A stretch of DNA of 64,000 nt from an uncultured Actinomycetota bacterium (GCA_963727415.1 CAVSGF010000010.1:354902-418901), one strand, 5' to 3'; shown: positions 24,846-37,363, counted from the stretch's first letter. The notes: generated by a model from the letters alone, not told the origin. Numbers and translations are program-made.

Positions 24846-25463
24846 TCAGCCACCGGCGGCCGCCAGCGGCGAGCGCCGCTCCCACGGCCACCGCCACGCG
24901 CGCGGCGGCCGGGCCCGGACCGAACTGCCGTGCGCTTCGCCGGTGACGACGAAATGCACATGACCCGGTACCGGTTCGGTGCCGACCCGGGCGGTGCGAG
25001 CCGAACTGCCGTGCATCGAGATCGATCCGATCTCGACGGATGACCCGGGCGGCACGGTCAGGCGTACGCCCGACCCGTGCACCTTGATCGAGACATGCAC
25101 AACCGGGGACGTGATCCTGGCACGAGTGAAATCGAGCCGCACTTTCGACCCGCGGGCCTCGATCCGCAGCCGGGCCGGCACGGTCCAGCGGCCGGTCCGG
25201 ATGATGCTGGAGCCGCGGGCGCTGAACGTCGCGTCGCCGGCCGGCGGCTGCGCCGCCGCGGAAGGCAGGTCGGCGATGTACGGCGTCACGTCGGCGAACG
25301 TTCTGGCGGCAAGCACGCCGTCGATCCGCTCCTCGAACTCCGTCAGGGTCAGCCGGCCCTCGCTGACCGCCTGGTTCAGCTGCGTCACCACCTGCTCACG
25401 ATCCCGATCCGACATGCGCACATGCGCATCAGGCTGGGACGAAGGCACGAGGTCAGGGCTCAT
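24846..25463 (-). CDS. DUF1707-domain / LiaF-like stress-response protein
   Basis: The N-terminus RMSDRDREQVVTQLNQAVSEGRLTLTEFEERIDGVLAARTFADVTPY has the DUF1707 pattern. The C-terminus is beta-rich. Confidence 0.5.
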   Translation of the reverse strand: MSPDLVPSSQPDAHVRMSDRDREQVVTQLNQAVSEGRLTLTEFEERIDGVLAARTFADVTPYIADLPSAAAQPPAGDATFSARGSSIIRTGRWTVPARLRIEARGSKVRLDFTRARITSPVVHVSIKVHGSGVRLTVPPGSSVEIGSISMHGSSARTARVGTEPVPGHVHFVVTGEAHGSSVRARPPRAWRWPWERRSPLAAAGG

Positions 25464-25532: not shown

Positions 25533-25961
25533 GTGAGCGCGGGCGACCTGCACGTCAATGATCATCTGACGATACCCGCCGCCGAGCTGCGCTGGCGGTT
25601 CTCCCGATCCAGCGGTCCTGGCGGCCAGGGCGTGAACACCACGGACAGCCGGGTGGAGCTGTCCTGGGACGTGGAGTCCTCGGCCGTGCTGGCCCCGGCG
25701 CTGAAACGGCGAGCGCGCGAGCGACTCGGCGCCAGGCTGATCGATGGTGTCCTCACCGTGTCGGCGTCCGAGTCGCGCGCGCAGTTACACAACCGCCGGC
25801 TGGCGGCCGACCGGCTGGCTACCCTTCTGATTTCGGCGCTGGCCCCGCCCCGGCCGCCCCGCCGGCCGACCAAGCCGACGAGAGGCTCGATCGAGCGTCG
25901 CCTGCTGGCCAAGAAGCGGCGGAGCGAGCTCAAGCGGGGCCGCCGGGACGGGTACGACTAG
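25533..25961 (+). CDS. arfB: Peptidyl-tRNA hydrolase ArfB (alternative ribosome-rescue factor)
   Basis: It has the GGQ motif in SGPGGQGVNTTDSRVEL and a basic C-terminal tail KKRRSELKRGRRDGYD. An in-frame GTG start was chosen. Confidence 0.6.
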   Translation: MSAGDLHVNDHLTIPAAELRWRFSRSSGPGGQGVNTTDSRVELSWDVESSAVLAPALKRRARERLGARLIDGVLTVSASESRAQLHNRRLAADRLATLLISALAPPRPPRRPTKPTRGSIERRLLAKKRRSELKRGRRDGYD

Positions 25962-25964
25962 CGA

Positions 25965-28900
25965 CTACAAGGTTCCACGAGCTCTCTCGATCGCGGCCTC
26001 GACACCGCCGACCCGGTCCGCGAGCAGCCCGAGAGCGCCGAGCGCACGCCTCATTGGATCGTCATCATCACCGCCGAGCGCACGGGCCCGCAGATATCCG
26101 GCCTTCACCTCGGTCCAGCGAGCCGCCTGAGCCTCGGTCATCCGTCCGCGCAGCTCCGCGAACTTCAGCAGGTTCTCCTCGGCGCCGGCGGCGAGAGTCT
26201 GCGCCTCGCCGAGATAGTGATCGTCGATCAGAGCCTCCAGATCCTCGTCATCCATGACCGAAACCACTCGCTCGGCAAGCTTGTTCATGTTGCGGTAGGA
26301 CCCCTGCAGCAGGTACGGCGGCTCGGTGCGGGACGCGTCCGACCGCGCCGCCGAGGCGATGTACGCCCGGTTGCTGGCGAGCACCACCCGCTGGACCCGC
26401 AGCAGCTTGCCGAGCACGGACAGGATCTCGTCCAGCTCGACGGCGGGATACGGGTATTCCAACTGGTCCGGGTTCACCCCGGCGTCCCCGGCCGCCAGGC
26501 GTACCAGCACGTCGATGTCGCCGCGACCGCGAGCGGACAGTGGCGCGAGCACCGGGTTCGCGGTCAGTGCGTTCTCGATGTAGCTGAGGGCGAACAAGTC
26601 CTCCCGGCCGCTGAGCACGTCACCGATGTTCCACACATCGGCGCGGTTGGCGAGCATGTCCGGCACCCGGAATCGGCTACCGGACTCGGTGTACGGGTTA
26701 CCGGCCATGCACACGGCGAACCGCTTGCCGCGGAGGTCGTAGGTGCGAGTGCGGCCGTCCCAGACGCCCTCGATCCGCCGCTGCGCGTCGCACAGCGAGA
26801 TGAACTTCTGCAGGAACTCCGGTGAGGTGTGTTGGATATCGTCGAGGTAGAGCAGCACGTTGTTGCCCATCTCAAGCGCGAACGAGACCTTCTGGACCTC
26901 TTGACGGGCGGTGGCGTTGGGCGCTTCGTCCGGATCCAGTGACGTGACTCCGGCACCGAGCGCGGGACCGTTGACCTTCACGAAGATGAGGCCGAGGCGG
27001 CTCGCGATGTACTCCATCAGGGTCGTCTTGCCATAGCCTGGCGGCGAGATCAGCATCAGCAGGCCCATCTGGTCGACCCGCTTGGCGTCGCCGGACGCGC
27101 CCAGCTGCCGCGCCAGGTTACCGGCCACCAGCGGCAGATAGACCTCGTCGATCAGCCGGTTGCGGACGAACGAGTCCATCACCTTCGGACGCAGTTCGTC
27201 CAGGCGAAGGCGCTGCGCTTGGCGTGCCGCTACGTCGTTACGTCGTTGGTGGTACGCCCGGAACGCGGGCACCCGCTCGTGGCGGAACGACCTGGCCCGG
27301 TCGAGCAATTCGTCGAGCCGGATGTCGAGCTGCCGGTCAACGATCCGGGGATGCGTGCTGAGCAACCCGGGCACTGTCGCGGTAACGGCGGCCGATGACT
27401 CGTACCGCTCGACATTGGCGCCGCATAGCGCGATGGTGACCGCCTCGGGCAGGTCGTACCGGTCGGCGGCGGTGCCGGACGCGGCCACGTAACCGGCCAC
27501 CCATGAGCAGACCAGCCGGTAGCCCCCGGCCATATCCGGTCCGACGGCACGCAGATCGTCGTCGAACGAGCGCACCGCCGCCGAGCGGGCGCCGCCCAGG
27601 GCGGCACGAAAACGAGCCAGCAGGTCCCGGGCCCGCGCGCTGGAGACGAACCCGGCACCGGCAGCCAGTTCCTCGAACAGGTAATCGGCGGCCGCGCCGG
27701 CACCGGCAGCCAGTTCCGGCAGGCCCGCGGAGGCGAGGTGGGCGTCGATGGCCGCCGCCATGTCGCCACGCACACGATCGATGCCGTCGGCCACACCAGG
27801 ACCGGCGAACAGCTCACGCGCGCGCCCCAGCGACCGGGCTGTGCGCGCCCATCCGTCACGAGTGTCGTCGGTGGCACCGTGCGCCCAGAACAGCGTTGCC
27901 GCGGCCCGTACCAGCGGCGGGAACCGCAGCAGGCCGGCTCCGGCGTGCAGGCGCAGCGTCTCGGCCAGGATCGCGGTGGCGTCGGCGTCGTGTACGCCAC
28001 GCTCGTAGCCCTCGTCGTACCTGGACTCGGCCACGGCCCGGACCGTCGCGCCCAAGGTACCGTCGGCGGCCGCGGCCCGGAGCTCGTCCATCCGAGCCGG
28101 GTCAGACTCCGCCTCGGCGAGAATCGACGTGGCGAGATACTCGGCCCGTGCCATCGTCGGCGACTCGGACACCAGGCGCTCGTCCCAGAATTGTTCGGTC
28201 CCGGCGAACGCCTCGTCCGGCAGCGGCGCCCGGTAGTCGGTTCCCGTAATGGCCACGGTCATCCGGCCGTCATGCGGTACCACGCTCAGCCCGATCGGCT
28301 GGGTATTGACGGCGAACCGGTGCTGGCCGAGCTGGATCGACTCGCCGCCGTCGCGGTACAGGTCGATCCGGTCACGGAGCGCCCGGGCCGCCTCCTGCCG
28401 GGCCGCCTTGAGGCGGCCGTCCAGTTCCTCGGCACGGACCGCGTCGTCGAGGGTGCGCAAGTCGTCGACGATGGACCGCACCTTCGCCACCATTGGATCG
28501 GCGGCGAAATACGTGTTGACCTCGTCAAGCGTCGCGAGTGTCGCCGACCGGCGGTGCACGCTGCCCAGGATCCGCGAGGCCGACTCCATCAGCCGGTCGG
28601 CCCGCCGGAGCCGCTCGTCGACCAGGCCCTGGCGGCGTGCCGAGAACGCTTCGTAGACATCGGTGCGCCGGTCGGCGAGTTCGGCGAGGAAGTCGTCGAA
28701 GTCACCGAACCGGGCTTCCAGGTTCTCCAGTTGCAGCAGCAAACGGGCCAGCTGCTCATCGCACTTGTCCACGGTGTCGGCGGTGGCCAGGGCGCCGGTG
28801 ATGGCCTGGGCAAGCAACGCCAGCTCAGCGGCGAAGCCGGCCCGTCCTTCGGCGGCGACCAGCTCGCGGCGACGCGCCTGAAGAGTGGCCCGCGTCCGGT

Positions 28901-30995
28901 TGATCGCCCCGAGCACCGTGCCGACCTGCTCCAGGATCGCGGTCCGGACGACGGTGTCGGCGATGTCCAGCGACCCGATCGTGTCGGTGACGACCTGCAA
29001 CCCGTCGGACTGCGCGGTGAGCTCGTCGGCGATCGGCGCGGCCTCGGCCACCGTGGCGATGGCCGCGGCTCGCCCGGACAGCCGCTCCAGATCGGACAGA
29101 TACGTGGTGAACGCTTCCTCGCCCCGGAGAAACTCGACCGCTCGGCCGGCGGTCGCCCTCACGGCCTCGGCCAGCCGGGCGGCGAGCGCGTCGATCGCGG
29201 CCACGTCGATGTACCGCTGTTCGCGCAGGGTCACCAGCCGGCCCTGGGCGGTCCGCAGCTCGGCGATCTGCCGTACCCAGGCGTCCGTCGACGCGGGCGT
29301 GGAGGCACCGGACTGCCGGATGAGGGCGGACACCTCGGTCTCGGCGGCCGCGAGTGCCCCGGCCGCGTGCCGGGCCAGTTGCTGAACCTTCTCGAACTCG
29401 TCGAGCACCTGCTCGGCCGCCGCCCGGACCTCGGACAGTGGCGAGCGCAGGTCGCCCAGTTCGGTGTCGCCGAGCCAGTGGTAGTGGTCGAAGGCGCGGG
29501 CACACGCGGCGATGAGCGCCTCGAACACCGGCGCCGACGGGCGCATCTCATCGACCATGCCGGCGATCGACAGGCAGTCGGAGATACCGCGGACCAGATC
29601 GGCGTTGCCGACCCGTTCGGCGGCGCTGTCGCCGATCGGCTGCGCGGCCGCGTGCGTGTCCGAGACGTACGGCGTGGCCCACACCTGCATCGGATGCACC
29701 CGTGTCGGCTCGTCCGACGTGGCTCGGAACACCACCAGCGTGCCGTCATCGAACAACGAGTAGCCGTGGCAGTTCAGCGGCGTGGTGGCCTGCTTACGAA
29801 TCACGTTGTACGGCAGCAACAGGGTGCGGCCCTCGGCTCGCGCGTGGTACGCGTACAGCACGTCCTCGCCGTTGGGCGACCGGATCACCCGCTCGAACTC
29901 AAGGTCGTCGGTATGGGCGTCGAAGGTCTTCGTCACGCCGGTGGTGAGGTAGTAGCCGCCCGGGAAGATGATGCCCTGGTCCTCCGGCAGGCGCTGGCAG
30001 GACTGCCCGATGCCGTCCAGCCGAACCACGTCCTTGGTGCGCGTATTGAAGATCACGTATCGCCAGTCGGTCTCCTTGTACGGCCGGATGCGCAGCAGGA
30101 TCAGCGGGCCGACGCGGGCATAGGCGACCTCGGCGTCGGCCAGGCTCTGCAGCGGCTCGGCAACCGGTTCGGCGTAGATGCCGGCACCGGTCTCGGTGTT
30201 GTTCTCGATCTTGATGGTGAGGTCGCCGCCGACGGTCTCGACGAACACCTCACCGGCGATCGAGATGTGCGGGTGGCGGCCCGAAACATGATCGTCACGG
30301 GTGGTTTCGGTCCACTCGAAGTCGTGCGGCGGCGGAAATCGATGGTCCCGCTCACCGCGGCTGTCCAGGTAGGTCGCCTTGCCACCGGGCGCGATCCGCC
30401 ACCGCGGTACCCGGATGTCCTCCAGCCTCGGCCCGGTCTGGAACACCGCGAGCAGCATGCCCTCGACCAGCCGCAACTGGAGCAGGCGGGCTTCCCGGTA
30501 GTAGCGGTACAGCTCGGCGAAGTCACGGCGGAAGCCGTCGTCGTCAATCAGGTCGGCGTCCCCGGCGCCCGGCTCGAACCGGTACGAGTCGCCGTCGCGT
30601 ACGAAGCGGTGCAGCGAGAACACGTCGGCGACCGTGGTCTCCGGCTTGAGCCCGAAGAACACGTTGTAGCCGAGCAGCATGCGATCGCCGACCGAGACGA
30701 TGTCGCGCGGCACGCAGTTGTGTTCGGTGCGGATCCGTTCGGTACCGAGCAGCCGCATCTCGGTACCGCCGAAGACCGCCAACCGCTGCTGGTTGAGCGC
30801 TTCGGCCCGCCCGGCCAGCTCGCGTGAACGGTCGGCCAGCCGGGCCCGCAACACCTCGTACGTGCCCGCCTCAAGAGGCCCCGGACCGGCCTGGGCCGCG
30901 GTGGCGGATTCCGATCCGGTGCCGCCGCCGGTCCCGACGGCGCCGGCGGCCTCCGCCGCCGGCGCCGTCGCGCCCGTCACGTCCGCCTCGGTCAT
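25965..30995 (-). CDS. Giant 1,676-aa protein with C-terminal AAA+ ATPase domain; function unknown
   Basis: This is a single uninterrupted ORF. It has Walker A LISPPGYGKTTL, Walker B VLLYLDD, sensor-1 AVCMAGNPYT and Arg-rich RFRVPDMLANRADV. Its ATG overlaps the flotillin stop (ATGA). Confidence 0.7.
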   Translation of the reverse strand: MTEADVTGATAPAAEAAGAVGTGGGTGSESATAAQAGPGPLEAGTYEVLRARLADRSRELAGRAEALNQQRLAVFGGTEMRLLGTERIRTEHNCVPRDIVSVGDRMLLGYNVFFGLKPETTVADVFSLHRFVRDGDSYRFEPGAGDADLIDDDGFRRDFAELYRYYREARLLQLRLVEGMLLAVFQTGPRLEDIRVPRWRIAPGGKATYLDSRGERDHRFPPPHDFEWTETTRDDHVSGRHPHISIAGEVFVETVGGDLTIKIENNTETGAGIYAEPVAEPLQSLADAEVAYARVGPLILLRIRPYKETDWRYVIFNTRTKDVVRLDGIGQSCQRLPEDQGIIFPGGYYLTTGVTKTFDAHTDDLEFERVIRSPNGEDVLYAYHARAEGRTLLLPYNVIRKQATTPLNCHGYSLFDDGTLVVFRATSDEPTRVHPMQVWATPYVSDTHAAAQPIGDSAAERVGNADLVRGISDCLSIAGMVDEMRPSAPVFEALIAACARAFDHYHWLGDTELGDLRSPLSEVRAAAEQVLDEFEKVQQLARHAAGALAAAETEVSALIRQSGASTPASTDAWVRQIAELRTAQGRLVTLREQRYIDVAAIDALAARLAEAVRATAGRAVEFLRGEEAFTTYLSDLERLSGRAAAIATVAEAAPIADELTAQSDGLQVVTDTIGSLDIADTVVRTAILEQVGTVLGAINRTRATLQARRRELVAAEGRAGFAAELALLAQAITGALATADTVDKCDEQLARLLLQLENLEARFGDFDDFLAELADRRTDVYEAFSARRQGLVDERLRRADRLMESASRILGSVHRRSATLATLDEVNTYFAADPMVAKVRSIVDDLRTLDDAVRAEELDGRLKAARQEAARALRDRIDLYRDGGESIQLGQHRFAVNTQPIGLSVVPHDGRMTVAITGTDYRAPLPDEAFAGTEQFWDERLVSESPTMARAEYLATSILAEAESDPARMDELRAAAADGTLGATVRAVAESRYDEGYERGVHDADATAILAETLRLHAGAGLLRFPPLVRAAATLFWAHGATDDTRDGWARTARSLGRARELFAGPGVADGIDRVRGDMAAAIDAHLASAGLPELAAGAGAAADYLFEELAAGAGFVSSARARDLLARFRAALGGARSAAVRSFDDDLRAVGPDMAGGYRLVCSWVAGYVAASGTAADRYDLPEAVTIALCGANVERYESSAAVTATVPGLLSTHPRIVDRQLDIRLDELLDRARSFRHERVPAFRAYHQRRNDVAARQAQRLRLDELRPKVMDSFVRNRLIDEVYLPLVAGNLARQLGASGDAKRVDQMGLLMLISPPGYGKTTLMEYIASRLGLIFVKVNGPALGAGVTSLDPDEAPNATARQEVQKVSFALEMGNNVLLYLDDIQHTSPEFLQKFISLCDAQRRIEGVWDGRTRTYDLRGKRFAVCMAGNPYTESGSRFRVPDMLANRADVWNIGDVLSGREDLFALSYIENALTANPVLAPLSARGRGDIDVLVRLAAGDAGVNPDQLEYPYPAVELDEILSVLGKLLRVQRVVLASNRAYIASAARSDASRTEPPYLLQGSYRNMNKLAERVVSVMDDEDLEALIDDHYLGEAQTLAAGAEENLLKFAELRGRMTEAQAARWTEVKAGYLRARALGGDDDDPMRRALGALGLLADRVGGVEAAIERARGTL

Positions 30996-33010
30996 GCGCC
31001 GTTACGCTGCGCCGGAGCGGCCAGGGCGGCGACCGGGGTGTCGGCGATGCCCAGACGCTGAACCGTCGCGAGCAGTTCGCGCAGCCGGTCCGTCTCGCCG
31101 CTGGACTTCATCTGCTGGAGCAGGAACGCCGACAGCGTCAGGTTGGACACGTCCCCGGTGTTCAGCGAACCGAGCAGACGGCTCAGGTCGGCGGTGAAGT
31201 CGCCGCTGCCGTCCAGCCACGGACGGGCCAGTGACTGCACCACGTCGGAGTGCCCGACGAAGCCGTCAACGGCCCGGCCCGCCGAGATCGCGCCGACCAG
31301 CCGGTCGAAGAAGGCGCCGTCGCCGCCAACGATGTCGATCTTCGCGTTCTCCAGGCCCTTGCCGACCACCTCGGCCTGTGCCTCGGCGACCTCGCGGTGC
31401 ATGGTGATGCCGGCCAGGCGGATCTCCTTTTCGGCTTCCAGCCGCAGCCGGTATTCCTCGTGCGCGCGGCTGGCCTCGTCGAGCGCGGCCATGGCAGCGG
31501 CCTTCTCGGTCAAGCCGTCCGCCTCGCCCTTGAGCTTCTCCCGGATCGAGTTGGCGGCGGCGATGCCCCGCTCCCGCTCGACCGCGGCCTCGGCCAGGCC
31601 GACCTTCTCGATCGCTTCGGCGTCCCGCTCCCGGACCTGCACCTCAGCCAGGCCGACCGCGGCCGCCTCGGCCTGAGCGCCCTCGGCAAGGCGAATCTTG
31701 GCGCGCGCGTCCAGGTCAGCCGCTTGCTGCCGAGCCTCGGCCAGGACCAGCGCCTCGCGAGCCTTGTGCTTGGCGGCGGCCTCCGCGGCCTCGGCCGCCT
31801 TGATGTCCTTGACCAGATTCTCCTGTGCCTGGGCCTCGGCCTGGATCACCGTGGCCTGCCGCGACCGCTCGGCTTCCTCGACGACGCGCAGGCGCTTGAT
31901 GTTCTCCTCCTGCTCGGCAACCGTCTTCTCCACCGCGATCCGCTCGCGTACCACCTCGGCGATCGCCCGGCGCTCGGCCTCGACCTCCTTGTCCTTGGCG
32001 ATCGTGGACAGTTCGGTCTCGCGCTGCCGGCTGATCACCTCAAGCATCCGGTCCTTCTCGATCCGCTCGTTCTCGATCGCGATGACCCGCTCGCGGTTCT
32101 TCTCCGCGACCGAGATCTCCCGGCTCTTGTTCTCCCGCTGGATGCCCAGCGCCTCGTCGGTACGGATGGCCGCCGAATCGGCCTTCAGCCGCTCCTCGGC
32201 GCGGACGCGCTCGATCTCGGCCTCTTCGCGAGCCCGGATCGTCTCGATCTCCCGCTTCTGCTTGATCTCGGCATCGGCCTGCCGCCGTTCGAGTTCCAGG
32301 ATGGCCTCCCGGGCGTCGACGTCCTGCCGGGTGATCTCCTTCTCCTCGTTGCGCTGGTACTCGTTGGTCCGGACATGCTCGATCGCGGTCAGCTCGGTGA
32401 TCTTGCGGATGCCCTGAGCGTCCAGGATGTTGCGCGGGTCCAGGTGCGCCATCGGAGTCTGCTCAAGGAAGTCGATGGCGGCGTCTTCCAGGCTGTACCC
32501 GTTCAGATCGGTTCCGATCACTCGGATGATCTGGTCCCGGAAGTCATCCCTCTTGGTGTAGAGGTCGACGAAGTCCAACTGCTTACCGACGGTCTTGAGG
32601 GCCTCGGAGAACTTCGCGTTGAACAGTTCCTGAAGCGTTTCGCGGTCGCTGGCCCTCGCGGTGCCGATCGCCTGCGCCACCTTGATCACGTCTTCGGCGG
32701 TCTTGTTGACCCGCACGAAGAATGTGATGCGGATGTCGGCCCGGATGTTGTCCCGGCAGATCAGGCCGTCGTGGCCGGTGCGCTCGATGTCGATGGTCTT
32801 GACCGAGATATCCATCATCTCGGCCTTGTGCAGCACCGGCAGGACCACCGCGCCGGTGAAGGTGACGTCGACCCGGCGGACCTTGGAGATGATCAGCGCC
32901 TTGCCCTGCTCGACCTTCCGGAACAAACGTCCCACGAGCAGTACGACACCGATGATGATCAGGAGAAGGACCGCGGCGAGCACGCCGAGTCCGGTGGTGA
33001 GCACATCCAT
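30992..33010 (-). CDS. Flotillin-like SPFH/band-7 protein with long coiled-coil
   Basis: An N-terminal TM helix is followed by an SPFH domain and a C-terminal region rich in EA/ER coiled-coil repeats. It lies 9 bp downstream of the NfeD-like gene. Confidence 0.7.
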   Translation of the reverse strand: MDVLTTGLGVLAAVLLLIIIGVVLLVGRLFRKVEQGKALIISKVRRVDVTFTGAVVLPVLHKAEMMDISVKTIDIERTGHDGLICRDNIRADIRITFFVRVNKTAEDVIKVAQAIGTARASDRETLQELFNAKFSEALKTVGKQLDFVDLYTKRDDFRDQIIRVIGTDLNGYSLEDAAIDFLEQTPMAHLDPRNILDAQGIRKITELTAIEHVRTNEYQRNEEKEITRQDVDAREAILELERRQADAEIKQKREIETIRAREEAEIERVRAEERLKADSAAIRTDEALGIQRENKSREISVAEKNRERVIAIENERIEKDRMLEVISRQRETELSTIAKDKEVEAERRAIAEVVRERIAVEKTVAEQEENIKRLRVVEEAERSRQATVIQAEAQAQENLVKDIKAAEAAEAAAKHKAREALVLAEARQQAADLDARAKIRLAEGAQAEAAAVGLAEVQVRERDAEAIEKVGLAEAAVERERGIAAANSIREKLKGEADGLTEKAAAMAALDEASRAHEEYRLRLEAEKEIRLAGITMHREVAEAQAEVVGKGLENAKIDIVGGDGAFFDRLVGAISAGRAVDGFVGHSDVVQSLARPWLDGSGDFTADLSRLLGSLNTGDVSNLTLSAFLLQQMKSSGETDRLRELLATVQRLGIADTPVAALAAPAQRNGA

Positions 33011-33019
33011 GAGAGTTCC

Positions 33020-33775
33020 TTAGTCGGAGGACGCGGCGCCCGCTACCGGGCCGCCGGGGGTCGCGGTGACCCAGAAGACCTCGCCGTCGGGGTCGTAGTC
33101 GTAAATCAGCGCATGGCTGCCGGACCGGAGCGCTTCGGCGCCGCTCTGCCGTACCTGGATGACGGCGGACGAGCCGTCGGCGGCGGTCACCTCGGCCTGG
33201 CCGAAGCGATCGTCGACTCGGCCGGTCCGGATCACGCACTCCAGGCCGACGAACCCTTGCCGGGATTCGGCGGGACCGGAGTCGAACAACCGGCGCAGGG
33301 GGCGGACCAGAATCGCGGTAACGACGGTGGCGATGACCAGAGCGGCAACGAGCACCAGCACGCCAAGCACGACACGGATCCACATCGGAGTGACAGGTGC
33401 GGCCAGCGCCGCACCGGCCAGGCTGACAAACCACGCGAATGTGATGATCAGCGACACCACTATGGAGATCGGAACTCCGCCGAGGCCGAGCCGGTGCAGC
33501 ACTCCGCCGTCATGGCCGTCATGGCCGTCATGGGCAGCACCGTCGCCATCGGCACCGCCATGCCCATGGGCGGCCAGATCGGCACCGCCATGCCCATGGG
33601 CGGCCAGATCGGCACCGCCGTGGCCACCGGCATCGAGGTCGATGCCGTCGTGCCCGTGACCGCCGATGTCAACCGCGCCGAGCACGGCCAGCAACCAGTA
33701 TCCGATGACGACGATCAGGAGGAAGGACAGCAGGCCGGTGGGAAAGCCGAGAGCCGCACGCACGAAGTCAGCCAT
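33020..33775 (-). CDS. NfeD-like membrane protein (YuaF-type partner of flotillin) with His/Gly-rich repeat
   Basis: TM helices are followed by a C-terminal OB-like segment, GEVFWVTA. The N-terminal loop is HGHDGIDLDAGGHGGADLAAHGHGGADLAAHGHGGADGDGAAHDGHDGHDGG. Confidence 0.6.
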   Translation of the reverse strand: MADFVRAALGFPTGLLSFLLIVVIGYWLLAVLGAVDIGGHGHDGIDLDAGGHGGADLAAHGHGGADLAAHGHGGADGDGAAHDGHDGHDGGVLHRLGLGGVPISIVVSLIITFAWFVSLAGAALAAPVTPMWIRVVLGVLVLVAALVIATVVTAILVRPLRRLFDSGPAESRQGFVGLECVIRTGRVDDRFGQAEVTAADGSSAVIQVRQSGAEALRSGSHALIYDYDPDGEVFWVTATPGGPVAGAASSD

Positions 33776-33999
33776 GGCCCCCGTCGCATTCCTTCCTGAT
33801 CAAGCCGTAGGCAGATGGTGACAGCCGATGTCAAGGCGCAACCGGGGCGGTGATGTCGTTCCGGACCTACCTCAGTGGCGGCGGCTGGATGGCACGGCGG
33901 GCGGGCGCGATGCGCTGCCTCGGCAGGACGAGGCTACGGGCTGGCGCACCGCGGCCACAAGGCCCGCCGGTGCGGTACGGCGGCACGATCGGTACCGGC

Positions 34000-35052
34000 T
34001 CAGGTTCCGTCCGGCCGGGCCCGGTCCCGAGTGTTGATCTGAGCCAGCCAGGCGTTGTATGCCTCAAGCCGCGCGTCGTCGTCATCAATGTCGGTACGGG
34101 TGCTCGGCACGGCCTGGGCATCGGCCGGTGCCGTCATGTAACGGTCGAGGCTGGCCCGGCGGGCCTGCTCGACCCAGCGCATCCGGGCGCCACCCCGTCC
34201 GCGACCGATGACCCATGGGATCAGAGCGGTGATGATCAAGGCGATCATGATGGTGTCGCCGCCGATCCACATCATCGCGCCGCCCCAGTGCACATCGGTG
34301 ACCAGGTCGGGACCCCAGGTGTGTTGCTGGGCCGCGTAAGCCGGCCACGGCTCGTGCTGCGTTGTCAGCAGGGTGAGGCCGGTGAACGTGTCGATCGGCA
34401 TGGACAGCAGGATGATCACCATCTTCGCCGGCCGGGACAATCGCCAGCGGATCGGCTCGTCGCCGAATCCGGACAACAGGTAGAGGTACCCGATCGTCAG
34501 GTACGCGACCTGCTCGGCGGTTGCCATTGACGGGTGCAGCACCACCTCGTTGTTGAACGAGGTGAGATGCGTGAACACCACCACGCCGGCATAGGCCGGG
34601 ATAGCGAACAGCGGGCAGGTGACGACGGTGACGAACCGCGATCTCAAGAACCGCTTGATCATGGTGTGCAGCGGGTTTCGGCTGGCGTGCATGGCCAGGG
34701 TCAGCGGGCGCCCGTGAATCAACAGCGCCGGAGCCACCATGATCAGCAATAGATGCTGGATCATGTGAATCCAGAAAAATGTGGTGTCGTAGTGGCCGAC
34801 CGCCGACATCAGCGCGATCGCGATCACGGCAAGCCCGCCGGCGAATGAGGCGGCGCGACCGGCCGGCCACGGGTGGTTGGGGTGCCGCCGCTTCACCCGG
34901 ACCATGCCCCAGGCGTACAGCCCCGCGGCGAGCAGCAGAAGCCCGACGGCGATCGGCCGGAATGTCCAGTCGGCGAGCAAGGTGGCCGCCGACGGCGCCG
35001 GACCGGCCATCGGGGTGGCAACGGTGGTCATGGCCGCACCGTTCGGCGGCAC
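34000..35052 (-). CDS. Cytochrome c oxidase assembly factor CtaG-like (caa3-type) membrane protein
   Basis: Polytopic protein with the ADWTFRP and HMIQHLLLIMVAP motifs. Confidence 0.6.
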   Translation of the reverse strand: MPPNGAAMTTVATPMAGPAPSAATLLADWTFRPIAVGLLLLAAGLYAWGMVRVKRRHPNHPWPAGRAASFAGGLAVIAIALMSAVGHYDTTFFWIHMIQHLLLIMVAPALLIHGRPLTLAMHASRNPLHTMIKRFLRSRFVTVVTCPLFAIPAYAGVVVFTHLTSFNNEVVLHPSMATAEQVAYLTIGYLYLLSGFGDEPIRWRLSRPAKMVIILLSMPIDTFTGLTLLTTQHEPWPAYAAQQHTWGPDLVTDVHWGGAMMWIGGDTIMIALIITALIPWVIGRGRGGARMRWVEQARRASLDRYMTAPADAQAVPSTRTDIDDDDARLEAYNAWLAQINTRDRARPDGT

Positions 35053-35398
35053 GGGCGGCGTCGATGTGCCATCTGCTCTCCTGGTTTTTCAATCGCCTGG
35101 CTGCCCCTGCCAGGCGCTGCGCCCTGGCCGGGCCCGGAACCGAACCTCAGACCTGACCCTAGCGCTGTGGCGAGCCTGGCCGGCAGCGGCGCCGCTGGCT
35201 TGTGGCGTAAGTCCGCGACATACGATGCGAGCACCGCGCCAACCAGCGGAACCGCCGGCCATCCGTGCAGCCTCGGCCGGTACCGCCGATCGACAGGAGC
35301 CTGCCACGCAGCCACGTCCCGATCCCGCGACATCGGTCACCCAGCCGGGCACCCCTGGCGGTCCGGCCGCTCCACCGCTACGCCGTCGGACCTCTGTC

Positions 35399-37363
35399 AT
35401 GGTGGGCTCGACGCTCCTGGCGGGGTTGATCGTGATCGTGATCGCGGTGATCGCCGGTTCCTGGCCGTTCCGGGCCATCGGCACCACCGATCCCGGGGCC
35501 GTGGTGCGTATCGTTACTCCGTTTCTGCGCCTCGTCGTTGACGTCGCCGCGACTGTCTGCGTGGGGAGTTTGGTCTTCGCCGCCTACTTCACCCGCCCGC
35601 AGGCGTCCGGCGTGGTGTCCCCGGCCGCGTACGCCGCGCTCCAGCGGGCCGGCAAGGCCGCGATCGTCTGGCTGATCGCGGCCTTGCTGATCTGGCCGTT
35701 CGACGCCGCCGCCACGGCCGGGCTGCCGCCGTCGCGGGTGCTGAGCCCGCACGCGATGAGGGTCCTGACCGGAGCGCTCGAGGGGCCGAAGGCATGGCTG
35801 GTGACCATCGGTCTGGTCGGTCTGGTCGCGATCGGCTGCCGCCGCGCGATCCGCTGGCAGACCACTCTGCTGCTGAGCGCGCTGGCCGTATTCGCCGTGC
35901 TGCCGCCGCTCGCGACCGGCCACTCGGCATCCGACGCCGGGCACGACCTGGCCACCGCCGCGATCATGATCCACGTACCGGCGGCGGTCATCTGGCTGGG
36001 CGTGCTCATCGCGCTGACGGCCGCCCGCCGAACCGACGGCAGCGTCGATCGGCGGTACCGCCGGATGAGCCGTGCGCTCTGGTGGCTGCTTGTCTACTCC
36101 GGCTTGATCGACGCGGCCGTGCTTGCACCCGGTCACACGCCTTGGACCACCGGCTACGGTCTCGTTCTGGGACTCAAGGTTCTGATCGCGCTCGGTCTTG
36201 GCGCCATGATCATGCGGATGCGCGACCGAATCTCACTCCGGTCCCGAGCCGCCTGGCTGGCGGGCGAGATGGTGCTGCTTGCCGCCGCGTACGGCCTGGC
36301 GGTCGGGCTTGCCACGCTGCCCGCACCGAAGTTCGTGGGCATGCCGGTCACCGGCGATGAGACGCTGATCGGCTACAACATCGGCGGGCCGCCGACGTGG
36401 GCCCGGCTGGCCTTCGACTGGCGGATCGAGGTCCTGTTCGCGCCGCTTTGCGTCCTGCTCGCCTGGGCTTATTGGGTGGGCATGCGCCGGATGCGCCGGG
36501 CCGGCGGTGCCTGGCCGGCCGCGCGCGCGATCAGCTGGTACGCGGGGTGCCTGGTGCTGTTGCTGGCAACCTCGTCCGGTCTGGGCCGGTACGCCCCAAC
36601 GATGTTCAGCGTCCAGGCGGCCACCCACATGCTGGTTGGCATGGTGGCTCCGATCCTGATGGCACTCGGCGCGCCGCTTACGCTGGCGGCCGCCACCGTG
36701 CGGCCCGCCTCGCCCGGCGACCTGCCCGGACCCGCCGAGTGGATCGAGGCCGTCCGGGATTCGCGGGCGATCCGGATCCTGACCCAGCCATTGCTGTGCA
36801 CCGCGATCTTTGTCGCGGCCCCGTTCCTGCTCTACTTCACCCCGGCATACGACGTGACGGTCCGGTTCCACTGGGCGCACCTGGGCATGGACCTGCTGTT
36901 CCTGGTAATCGGCTACCTGTTCGCATGGATGATCATCGGATCGGACCCGCTGCCTCACCCGGTGCCCAACCTGATGCGCATCGGCCTGCTGCTGGCCGTG
37001 ATGCCGGCCGACATCCTGTTCGCCGCCGCGATCGTGGCGAGCCGACGGATCATCGGCGACAGCCGGGCCAGCGCCAACATGTACTCGGCGCTGGAGCTCC
37101 CCTGGGTCGGCAGCCTGCACGCCGACCAGCGACTCGGCGCCTATCTGGCGCTGGCGATCAGCGAGGCGGCGGTGCTGGTGACGCTGGCCGTGGCGGTGGC
37201 CCGATGGCGGCCGGCCGAACGCGACGCGGACCTCGGGGACTACCGCCCGCTGGTCGAAGCGCTGCGCGCTCGTTCAGCCGCTCCCACCCAGACCCCGGCG
37301 GGCCGGCCGGCCGAGCGTTCCGATGCTGGCTCAGCGGTCCGCCCGGACGGTCCGCAACCGTAG
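35399..37363 (+). CDS. CopD-like copper-resistance domain fused to CtaG-like cytochrome oxidase assembly domain
   Basis: ATG at 35399 was chosen. The ORF-track start at 34877 overlaps the divergent gene. The N-terminal half has CopD-type TM helices. The C-terminal half repeats CtaG-like motifs (HMLVGMVAPILMALGAP). Confidence 0.55.
   Translation: MVGSTLLAGLIVIVIAVIAGSWPFRAIGTTDPGAVVRIVTPFLRLVVDVAATVCVGSLVFAAYFTRPQASGVVSPAAYAALQRAGKAAIVWLIAALLIWPFDAAATAGLPPSRVLSPHAMRVLTGALEGPKAWLVTIGLVGLVAIGCRRAIRWQTTLLLSALAVFAVLPPLATGHSASDAGHDLATAAIMIHVPAAVIWLGVLIALTAARRTDGSVDRRYRRMSRALWWLLVYSGLIDAAVLAPGHTPWTTGYGLVLGLKVLIALGLGAMIMRMRDRISLRSRAAWLAGEMVLLAAAYGLAVGLATLPAPKFVGMPVTGDETLIGYNIGGPPTWARLAFDWRIEVLFAPLCVLLAWAYWVGMRRMRRAGGAWPAARAISWYAGCLVLLLATSSGLGRYAPTMFSVQAATHMLVGMVAPILMALGAPLTLAAATVRPASPGDLPGPAEWIEAVRDSRAIRILTQPLLCTAIFVAAPFLLYFTPAYDVTVRFHWAHLGMDLLFLVIGYLFAWMIIGSDPLPHPVPNLMRIGLLLAVMPADILFAAAIVASRRIIGDSRASANMYSALELPWVGSLHADQRLGAYLALAISEAAVLVTLAVAVARWRPAERDADLGDYRPLVEALRARSAAPTQTPAGRPAERSDAGSAVRPDGPQP

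Follow-up and report, generated by a model that had tools for sequence, protein, structure and literature searches.

The 64,000-nucleotide stretch of DNA analysed here (the window; uncultured Actinomycetota bacterium, GCA_963727415.1 CAVSGF010000010.1:354902-418901) carries on its minus strand three genes for a YqiJ/NfeD-like membrane protein, a flotillin and a 1,676-residue AAA+ ATPase of the Pfam family DUF3686. These genes are co-directional, tightly packed and form a genuine module, hereafter the triad, which is inherited together across phyla. The module is computationally described and experimentally untouched, and the window holds a further instance of it, not a new kind. As the best explanation of its function we propose that, under envelope stress, the ATPase would drive the assembly or remodelling of a flotillin scaffold at the expense of ATP, a reading to which we assign a probability of roughly 55%. 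Bacterial flotillins still have no well-defined molecular function, and none has been connected with an energy source. The flotillin of the subfamily considered here is almost always encoded beside an AAA+ protein of 1,600–1,800 residues, and the triad, which is widespread, mis-named and unstudied, offers a testable handle on the assembly and recycling of SPFH scaffolds. It also bears on whether bacteria own an ATPase that acts on SPFH and PspA/ESCRT-III-type systems.

Operon layout and coding evidence

The operon begins with the yqiJ-like gene (33020..33775, minus strand, 251 amino acids (aa)), continues with the flotillin gene (30992..33010, minus strand, 672 aa) and ends with the giant ATPase gene (25965..30995, minus strand, 1,676 aa). 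Both junctions were read directly. A 9-bp spacer (33011..33019, minus strand, GGAACTCTC) separates the yqiJ-like stop from the flotillin start, with a purine-rich TAAGGAA overlapping the yqiJ-like stop codon, and the flotillin stop TGA shares the ATGA at 30992..30995 (minus strand) with the ATPase start ATG. Together with the open reading frame (ORF) calls, these junctions reproduce exactly the three minus-strand genes, the coordinates, the 9-bp gap and the shared ATGA that an initial annotation of the window had listed.

The guanine-plus-cytosine (GC) fractions at the three codon positions are 0.73/0.49/0.88, 0.71/0.40/0.90 and 0.77/0.50/0.80 in the triad genes, that is, 0.80–0.90 at the third position (GC3) in all three, within surrounding sequence of 69% GC. 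This pattern indicates that the genes are real and neither chance nor shadow ORFs. Two long antisense ORFs, one opposite the ATPase gene (27738-30827, plus strand, 1,029 aa) and one opposite the flotillin and yqiJ-like genes (31250-33799, plus strand, 849 aa), are without a coding GC3 signal and were set aside as high-GC shadows. An interruption of the giant gene, which the initial annotation had named as a possible objection, is excluded, as 97–100% of its length aligns with homologues of 1,600–1,760 aa.

Upstream, a 224-bp intergenic region (33776..33999, minus strand), presumed to hold the operon promoter, lies between the yqiJ-like start (33775) and the stop of a CtaG-like gene on the same strand (34000); the ribosome-binding-like motif AGGAAGGAA precedes the yqiJ-like start. 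A scan for promoter and terminator consensus sequences gave 0 matches and no sigma-70 consensus, which is uninformative for an actinomycete at 69% GC. Downstream, an ArfB-type gene (RF-1 domain, GGQ motif) on the plus strand converges on the operon and stops at 25961, leaving 3 nt to the ATPase stop codon and closing the operon as initially described. We rejected it as an operon member because it lies on the opposite strand and is not conserved at other loci.

Conservation and linkage across genomes

A search with the N-terminal 1,200 residues of the ATPase retrieves 1,360 clusters of 50% identity, 452 of them at E ≤1e-30, and among the relatives are full-length ones with as little as 27% identity. 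When one genome per species was scanned, at least 582 species had a relative, and the records bearing the triad name at least six phyla. The nearest relatives belong to Micromonosporaceae-like genera, whose ATPases are 65–70% and whose flotillins are about 80% identical to those of the window.

Three collections were surveyed for linkage, and in each of them homologues of the giant protein lie mostly beside flotillin genes, the outcome on which the initial annotation had staked its proposal. Among the best 80 loci of the genome scan (from lineages including Actinomycetota, Myxococcus/Corallococcus, Acidobacteriota and deltaproteobacterial metagenome-assembled genomes), 4 begin at a contig end; in all 76 others the ATPase gene is immediately preceded by a flotillin gene of the same strand, and in 62 of those 76 a YqiJ-like gene was found ahead of the flotillin. 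Clustering of the flanking ORFs across these 80 loci returned the triad as the only conserved genes. In a plasmid collection, 13 records carry the ATPase gene (Streptomyces, Nonomuraea, Deinococcus, Pseudomonas pQBR103, Proteus, Hymenobacter, Halomonas, Photobacterium and Vibrio), and these are exactly the records with the 13 best flotillin matches, the two genes adjoining in 13/13. The ATPase-linked flotillins are thus the closest-matching subgroup in that collection; a further 19 plasmid records carry more distant flotillins and no ATPase. A metagenome scan was seeded with the most distant clade (31–51% identity to the window ATPase; 80 loci), and here flotillin lies upstream in 72/80, 4 loci are ambiguous or short of upstream DNA, and 4 ATPases are solo. 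One of the solo genes (survey locus L117) has an AIM24-family protein and an M48 peptidase encoded upstream, another (L100) an Rce1-like CAAX protease with two divergent ORFs in between.

The ATPase and the flotillin have diverged in step, their identities to the window proteins co-varying with a Spearman coefficient of 0.89 over 146 loci. Independent gene calls also place a DUF3686/DUF7902/AAA gene after the flotillin gene, with overlaps of 8 nt in Verrucosispora and 4 nt in Flindersiella. The ATPase is not a partner of every such pair: downstream of yqiJ-yqiK in Escherichia coli K-12 there is no ATPase, and sibD/ibsD follow.

The initial annotation had regarded the ATPase as obligately coupled to the flotillin, and this does not hold. 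By a start-codon heuristic, the ATGA overlap occurs in 11/59 scored genome loci, and the flotillin–ATPase gap of distant relatives is mostly tens to about 200 nt; annotated gaps are 113 nt in pQBR103, 132 nt in Deinococcus and 198 nt in Hymenobacter. ATGA coupling is a feature of some lineages, and the four solo homologues have no flotillin to be coupled to.

Domain architecture of the giant ATPase

Two Pfam families match the region preceding the AAA+ module. DUF3686 (PF12458) covers residues 59–506 (29478..30821, minus strand; E 3.7e-220, 731.5 bits against a cut-off of 25), and DUF7902 (PF25472) covers residues 627–711 (28863..29117, minus strand; 89.9 bits against a cut-off of 26) within a helical-bundle/coiled-coil region at about 450–1250. 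The AAA+ alpha/beta core follows at about residues 1270–1500 (26496..27188, minus strand), where AAA (24.4 bits, cut-off 21.2) and AAA_5 (24.8 bits, cut-off 22) are marginal passes over residues 1313–1437. No hydrophobic segment was found in the 1,676-aa protein, which points to a soluble ATPase whose two partners are both membrane-anchored.

The AAA+ module is complete, and the motifs quoted for it initially are all present: Walker A ISPPGYGKTT at 27021-27050 and Walker B LLYLDD at 26838-26855 (both minus strand), together with MAGNP, which holds the candidate sensor-1 residue N1433, and RFRVPDMLANRAD. A candidate arginine finger, R1451, lies in MLANRAD, and the lid carries GSYRNM with the candidate sensor-2 residue R1568. 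The ATPase is probably an active nucleoside triphosphatase (NTPase), despite a DD in place of the usual DE, because the catalytic residues (the Walker A Lys, the Walker B DD, N1433, R1451 and R1568) are invariant in alignments down to 30% identity.

Structure prediction refines the picture of the N-terminal region, of which the initial annotation had described residues 1–1250 as largely helical. That description stands for about residues 450–1250 and fails for about residues 80–445, the beta-rich DUF3686 part. Within DUF3686, an N-terminal helix precedes about 24 beta-strands, arranged as six groups of four, after which the helical region begins. In the AlphaFold2 (AF2) model this beta region has a predicted local distance difference test (pLDDT) score of about 60–80 with one poor stretch, and Foldseek matched DUF3686 to beta-propellers in the PDB (Fbw7, beta-TrCP, the LRRK2 WD40 domain, CyRPA and S9 peptidases) at E 1e-5 to 1e-3 with low TM-scores. 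Residues of about 80–445 therefore appear propeller-like, as judged from a medium-confidence model and from matches of low TM-score. Residues 700–1676 were modelled with a mean pLDDT of 83 as helical hairpins, two small beta elements, a helical domain, the AAA+ core, a lid and C-terminal helices, and the helical arms in particular are modelled confidently.

For the AAA+ region, Foldseek placed RuvB first, together with NorQ/CbbQ (MoxR type), Skd3/ClpB, MCM and Mdn1, all at E of about 1e-3, while a family-profile search of PDB sequences gave a match confined to about 40 residues around the P-loop (NVL, Rix7, p97 and RuvB). Judged by these motifs and matches, the module is a divergent AAA+. What may link it to MoxR/AAA_5 proteins (NorQ, CbbQ and RavA) is the marginal AAA_5 pass, which the AAA model equals, the presence of NorQ and CbbQ among the best fold matches, and a stretch, 'QRRIEGVW.G..RTYDL.G.RFAV.MAGNPYTE.G..F..PDML.NR', that by eye resembles the MoxR signature (a beta-hairpin before strand 4, NP.E and an Arg finger). 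In contrast to MoxR proteins, the window ATPase has a 1,250-residue N-terminal extension and no VWA partner, and RuvB scores equally.

The flotillin and the YqiJ-like protein

Along the 672-aa protein, a membrane anchor at the N-terminus is followed by an SPFH/Band-7 domain, a long coiled coil rich in Glu, Ala and Arg, and a conserved C-terminal block; its single hydrophobic segment covers residues 1–34. BLASTP against E. coli YqiK aligned 453 aa, covering anchor, SPFH domain and coiled coil, at 29% identity (E 7e-40), and homologues at 77–83% identity are named flotillin or YqiK, many of them with PF01145. The window protein itself gave no match to Band_7 (PF01145) even at E up to 10, and none in Pfam, NCBIfam or PDB-sequence searches. 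Its orthologues P0126 (83% identical, 26.1 bits) and P0182 (31.2 bits), which share 79–83% identity with it, carry Band_7 at residues 32–175 above the cut-off of 23.6, and the pQBR103 orthologue (about 44% identical) carries it at residues 33–183 with 42.5 bits against the same cut-off. Because these orthologues pass, we attribute the miss to the sensitivity of the hidden Markov model and not to the absence of the domain, which we transfer to about residues 32–175 of the window flotillin (32486..32917, minus strand).

ATPase-linked flotillins measure 626–731 aa, against 553 aa for E. coli YqiK. Their conserved C-terminal block follows the pattern HEE(Y/F)RLRL...IVGGDG, where the alignment with YqiK is unreliable; a C-terminal extension specific to ATPase-linked flotillins as a docking site is for that reason not claimed.

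The 251-aa protein has three hydrophobic segments, with hydrophobic stretches at residues 4–39 and 92–164. It has no Pfam (NfeD PF01957 included), NCBIfam or PDB-sequence match of its own, and a Deinococcus orthologue reaches 16.8 bits against NfeD PF01957, under the cut-off of 29.1. The database names of its homologues are 'DUF1449 family protein' or 'OB-fold-containing', and hhalign of the family profile with E. coli YqiJ gave a probability of 85% (E 6e-6, 145 columns). Kinship with NfeD is thus supported only through the YqiJ family and the published link between YqiJ/YuaF and NfeD (PMC2636767). Given the YqiK and YqiJ comparisons and the orthologues, we assign the two genes to the NfeD-like/flotillin pairs of yqiJ-yqiK type, which upholds the labels first given to them, although neither window protein matches a Pfam or NCBIfam family.

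The most conserved block in the family alignment of the YqiJ-like protein is its C-terminal domain (33065..33268, minus strand), with the pattern FVG..C.IRTG.V...FGQAEV...DGSSAV.QVR...L..GS.ALIYDYD. It aligns with the C-terminus of E. coli YqiJ and is presumed to form the NfeD/YqiJ OB fold. Between hydrophobic segments 1 and 2 lies a His/Gly/Asp-rich repetitive loop of 55 residues (GGHGHDGIDLDAGGHGGADLAAHGHGGADLAAHGHGGADGDGAAHDGHDGHDGG; 33500..33664, minus strand), made up of HGHGGADLAA twice and then DGHDGHDGG. None of the 17 family members aligned has a longer insert of this kind, and some Streptomyces homologues have shorter ones. The loop could bind metal; copper-related genes adjoin the operon.

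Relation to previously described systems

The initial annotation had presented the triad as an undescribed machine. This cannot be maintained, because Ravi et al. (mSystems 2024, PMC11237479; preprint 2020) report the same three-gene arrangement and ATPase architecture, namely an operon of YqiJ/YuaF, Band-7/flotillin and a "novel AAA+ ATPase with beta-propeller and coiled-coil", and the ATPase itself falls into DUF3686 and DUF7902 with thousands of homologues. That study, which is purely computational and places the operon in an envelope-stress network, found it alone or joined to CesT/Tir-PspA, and states that abbreviated operons of flotillin, YqiJ/YuaF and, 'in some cases', the ATPase are widely distributed. 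Its Table S3 lists, for Dokdonia donghaensis beside ANH61663.1, YqiJ-YuaF, Band-7/flotillin and a beta-propeller, coiled-coil and AAA-ATPase protein. As PMC11237479 gives no Pfam identifier or accession for the ATPase, its identity with the DUF3686 protein is a strong inference from architecture and context.

The window holds a YqiJ/YuaF-type protein with three transmembrane (TM) segments, a flotillin and a propeller-like/coiled-coil AAA+ protein, in the same order and on the same strand. Gene order and all three architectures thus agree, in the 'abbreviated' form without PspA. Unlike the full form, the window has neither the CesT/Tir-PspA dyad, which is optional in the abbreviated form and in whose place upstream a CtaG-like gene is found, nor the PLD gene. 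In Hymenobacter the order is Tir chaperone, PspA, DUF1449, flotillin and 'DNA repair ATPase', which matches the published Bacteroidota layout, although the stored Table S3 string does not spell out PspA. Full-text literature searches returned no experimental study of the ATPase, in keeping with the initial remark that no characterised third partner of this kind was recognised. Keyword searches of the text of PMC2636767 (a survey of SPFH operons) and PMC13086221 (a 2026 study of Pseudomonas SPFH proteins) returned no mention of it.

The first two genes have well-known counterparts, and in Hinderhofer et al. 2009 (PMC2636767) pairs of NfeD-like and flotillin genes appear as the SPFH2 subgroup. 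E. coli yqiJ-yqiK and Bacillus subtilis yuaF-floT likewise encode a 3-TM YqiJ-type protein and then a flotillin with TM, SPFH and coiled-coil parts; the E. coli K-12 pair differs in having no ATPase downstream and a YqiK shorter than the ATPase-linked flotillins.

Proposed mechanism

Elsewhere than in the window, the gene neighbourhood of the triad leads towards the cell envelope, and in many lineages the triad shares an operon with PspA envelope-stress genes. PspA is a bacterial homologue of ESCRT-III, and a PspA gene precedes the yqiJ-like gene in 21/80 of the distant metagenomic loci. On pQBR103 (L081:1-7830) the triad closes a cluster of 10 genes on one strand, in the order YjfI, PspA, rhomboid, DUF2491, DUF350, DUF1190, glutathionylspermidine synthase, YqiJ-like, SPFH and 'DNA repair ATPase'. 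We draw the link to envelope stress from these PspA, CesT/Tir or YjfI neighbours and from the same reading in PMC11237479. As a separate observation, the pQBR103 cluster connects the triad, on a mobile replicon, with envelope genes related to polyamines.

Based on this context and on the domain architecture, we propose the following hypothetical scenario, in which (i) the flotillin and the YqiJ-like protein would oligomerise into a scaffold or cage that is anchored in the membrane and faces the cytoplasm, like the SPFH-NfeD and flotillin cages of known structure; (ii) the ATPase would dock on this scaffold, or on PspA-type polymers recruited there, by means of its propeller and helical arms; and (iii) the C-terminal AAA+ module, presumably a ring oligomer, would spend ATP on assembling, dismantling or remodelling the scaffold when the envelope or membrane is under stress. 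Its role would be comparable to that of Vps4 on ESCRT-III or NSF on SNAREs. More tentatively, and with less confidence than we place in scaffold remodelling as such, we suggest that the DUF3686 protein may be the missing ATP-driven remodeller of flotillin cages, and of ESCRT-III-like polymers where PspA is co-encoded. If so, it would be the functional counterpart of Vps4, a type of ATPase for PspA that bacteria appear to lack according to a 2025 review (PMC7619361). The comparison with Vps4/ESCRT-III and PspF/PspA holds in that, in other lineages, the genes for a PspA/ESCRT-III homologue and a membrane scaffold lie next to that of an AAA+ protein, and that polymer remodelling is proposed. The window ATPase differs from Vps4 in that a Pfam search found neither MIT nor Vps4_C in it and it resembles classical AAA proteins over no more than about 40 residues around the P-loop, and it differs from PspF in not being a sigma-54 activator.

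Several observations weigh against ATP-driven scaffold remodelling. No PspA gene came up in the 64-kb window with two PspA queries, and no Tir gene with one. The Walker B motif is hhhhDD and not hhhhDE, with both Asp residues invariant family-wide, and no aromatic pore-loop motif was recognised by eye between Walker A and Walker B, so that a threading or unfolding mechanism is not assured. The affinities of the AAA+ module are also split, as sequence profiles point to NVL, p97 and RuvB at the P-loop only, and folds to RuvB and MoxR-type proteins. Finally, the four solo ATPases (L097, L100, L117 and L144), all full-length at 1,741–1,848 aa, have no flotillin gene within about 4–6 kb upstream.

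Alternative explanations

The alternative that survives best is client-directed quality control, in which the cage would corral client proteins in or near the membrane and the AAA+ module would extract, unfold or chaperone them, leaving the scaffold itself as it is. The gene-context evidence fits it as well as it fits scaffold remodelling, and there is a precedent in HflK/C-FtsH, described in PMC13220708 as an SPFH cage enclosing an AAA+ machine, where an SPFH scaffold is likewise paired genetically and functionally with an AAA+ protein at the inner membrane. Staphylococcus aureus FloA-NfeD has moreover been reported to stabilise unfolded proteins (cited in PMC13086221), and the fold likeness to the maturation chaperones NorQ/CbbQ and the passed AAA_5 cut-off point in the same direction. 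However, the window ATPase is unlike FtsH: it is soluble and without a membrane anchor, has no protease domain in the Pfam search, is about 2.5 times larger and probably belongs to another AAA+ lineage, and its SPFH partner is of the flotillin type. No MoxR-style VWA partner occurs in any annotated neighbourhood, and no candidate client gene is conserved, since only the triad is conserved across the 80 loci. We therefore regard client-directed quality control as unlikely, if still the most serious competitor of scaffold remodelling.

Considerably less probable is an anti-phage or conflict system that would use the membrane scaffold and the giant NTPase to sense or abort infection, as the initial annotation had suggested in speaking of a possible defence device. 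The very large uncharacterised ATPase and the presence of the module on some megaplasmids (pQBR103, Hymenobacter and Deinococcus) would suit such a system, as would faint PADLOC matches to mad8 and IetA (E 1e-3 to 6e-3). These matches are confined to the P-loop, however, and PADLOC-DB 2.0 returns nothing for the ATPase besides such P-loop matches (E 1e-3 or weaker) and no match at all for its two partners, so that defence finds no support there. The flanks of the window are housekeeping in character (ArfB, CtaG-like genes, P-type ATPase and glycosyltransferase), the divergence of ATPase and flotillin follows taxonomy as in vertical inheritance, and in Streptomyces there is lineage-level synteny with a PucR-type regulator. 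Nuclease or toxin genes do not recur beside the triad, whereas PspA, CesT/Tir and polyamine genes do.

DNA repair, the role given in the Pfam description of DUF3686 and in the NCBI product name 'DNA repair ATPase', is scarcely credible, since beyond these names it can call on weak RuvB matches (NCBIfam E 2e-4, far under the cut-off; Foldseek E about 1e-3) that are generic to the AAA+ core and equalled by MoxR-type, ClpB/Skd3, MCM and dynein-family proteins, whereas the Pfam search found no nuclease, helicase-accessory or DNA-binding domain, no DNA-related neighbour was seen, the invariant partners are two membrane proteins, and literature searches found no supporting paper. The product name is very probably misleading.

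Neighbouring genes

A copper-related cluster (34000-39667) lies directly upstream of the operon in the window. It comprises the CtaG-like gene (34000-35052, minus strand), an 828-aa ORF with a C-terminal second Caa3_CtaG domain (34877-37363, plus strand) and a gene for an HMA-domain P-type ATPase (37331-39667, minus strand). As the two CtaG-like ORFs lie on opposite strands and share 176 nt, at least one of their starts was probably called too far upstream. On the other side, just past ArfB and on the strand of the triad, a gene encodes a DUF1707 (SHOCT-like) protein (24846-25463, minus strand). SHOCT-like domains count among the partners of the phage-shock-protein (PSP) network (PMC11237479). 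We rejected this gene as an operon member, as it lies beyond ArfB and is not among the conserved neighbours at other loci.

Regulatory genes adjoin the triad in several relatives. A gene for a PucR-type regulator (GGDEF_2 and HTH_30) lies near the yqiJ-like gene at 28 loci (29 with one fragment), nearly all of them from Streptomyces, and in most of the 28 it is divergently upstream (for example L036:3939-5156, minus strand, and L035, L037, L039 and L041). We consider it a candidate local regulator of the operon in the Streptomyces lineage. Extracytoplasmic function (ECF) sigma factors and PadR regulators are typical regulators of envelope stress. In Verrucosispora (L168:5742-7068), genes for an ECF sigma factor and a 199-aa protein annotated without a function directly precede the triad, and in Flindersiella (L169:15010-15348) a PadR regulator gene and two genes without an assigned function follow it.

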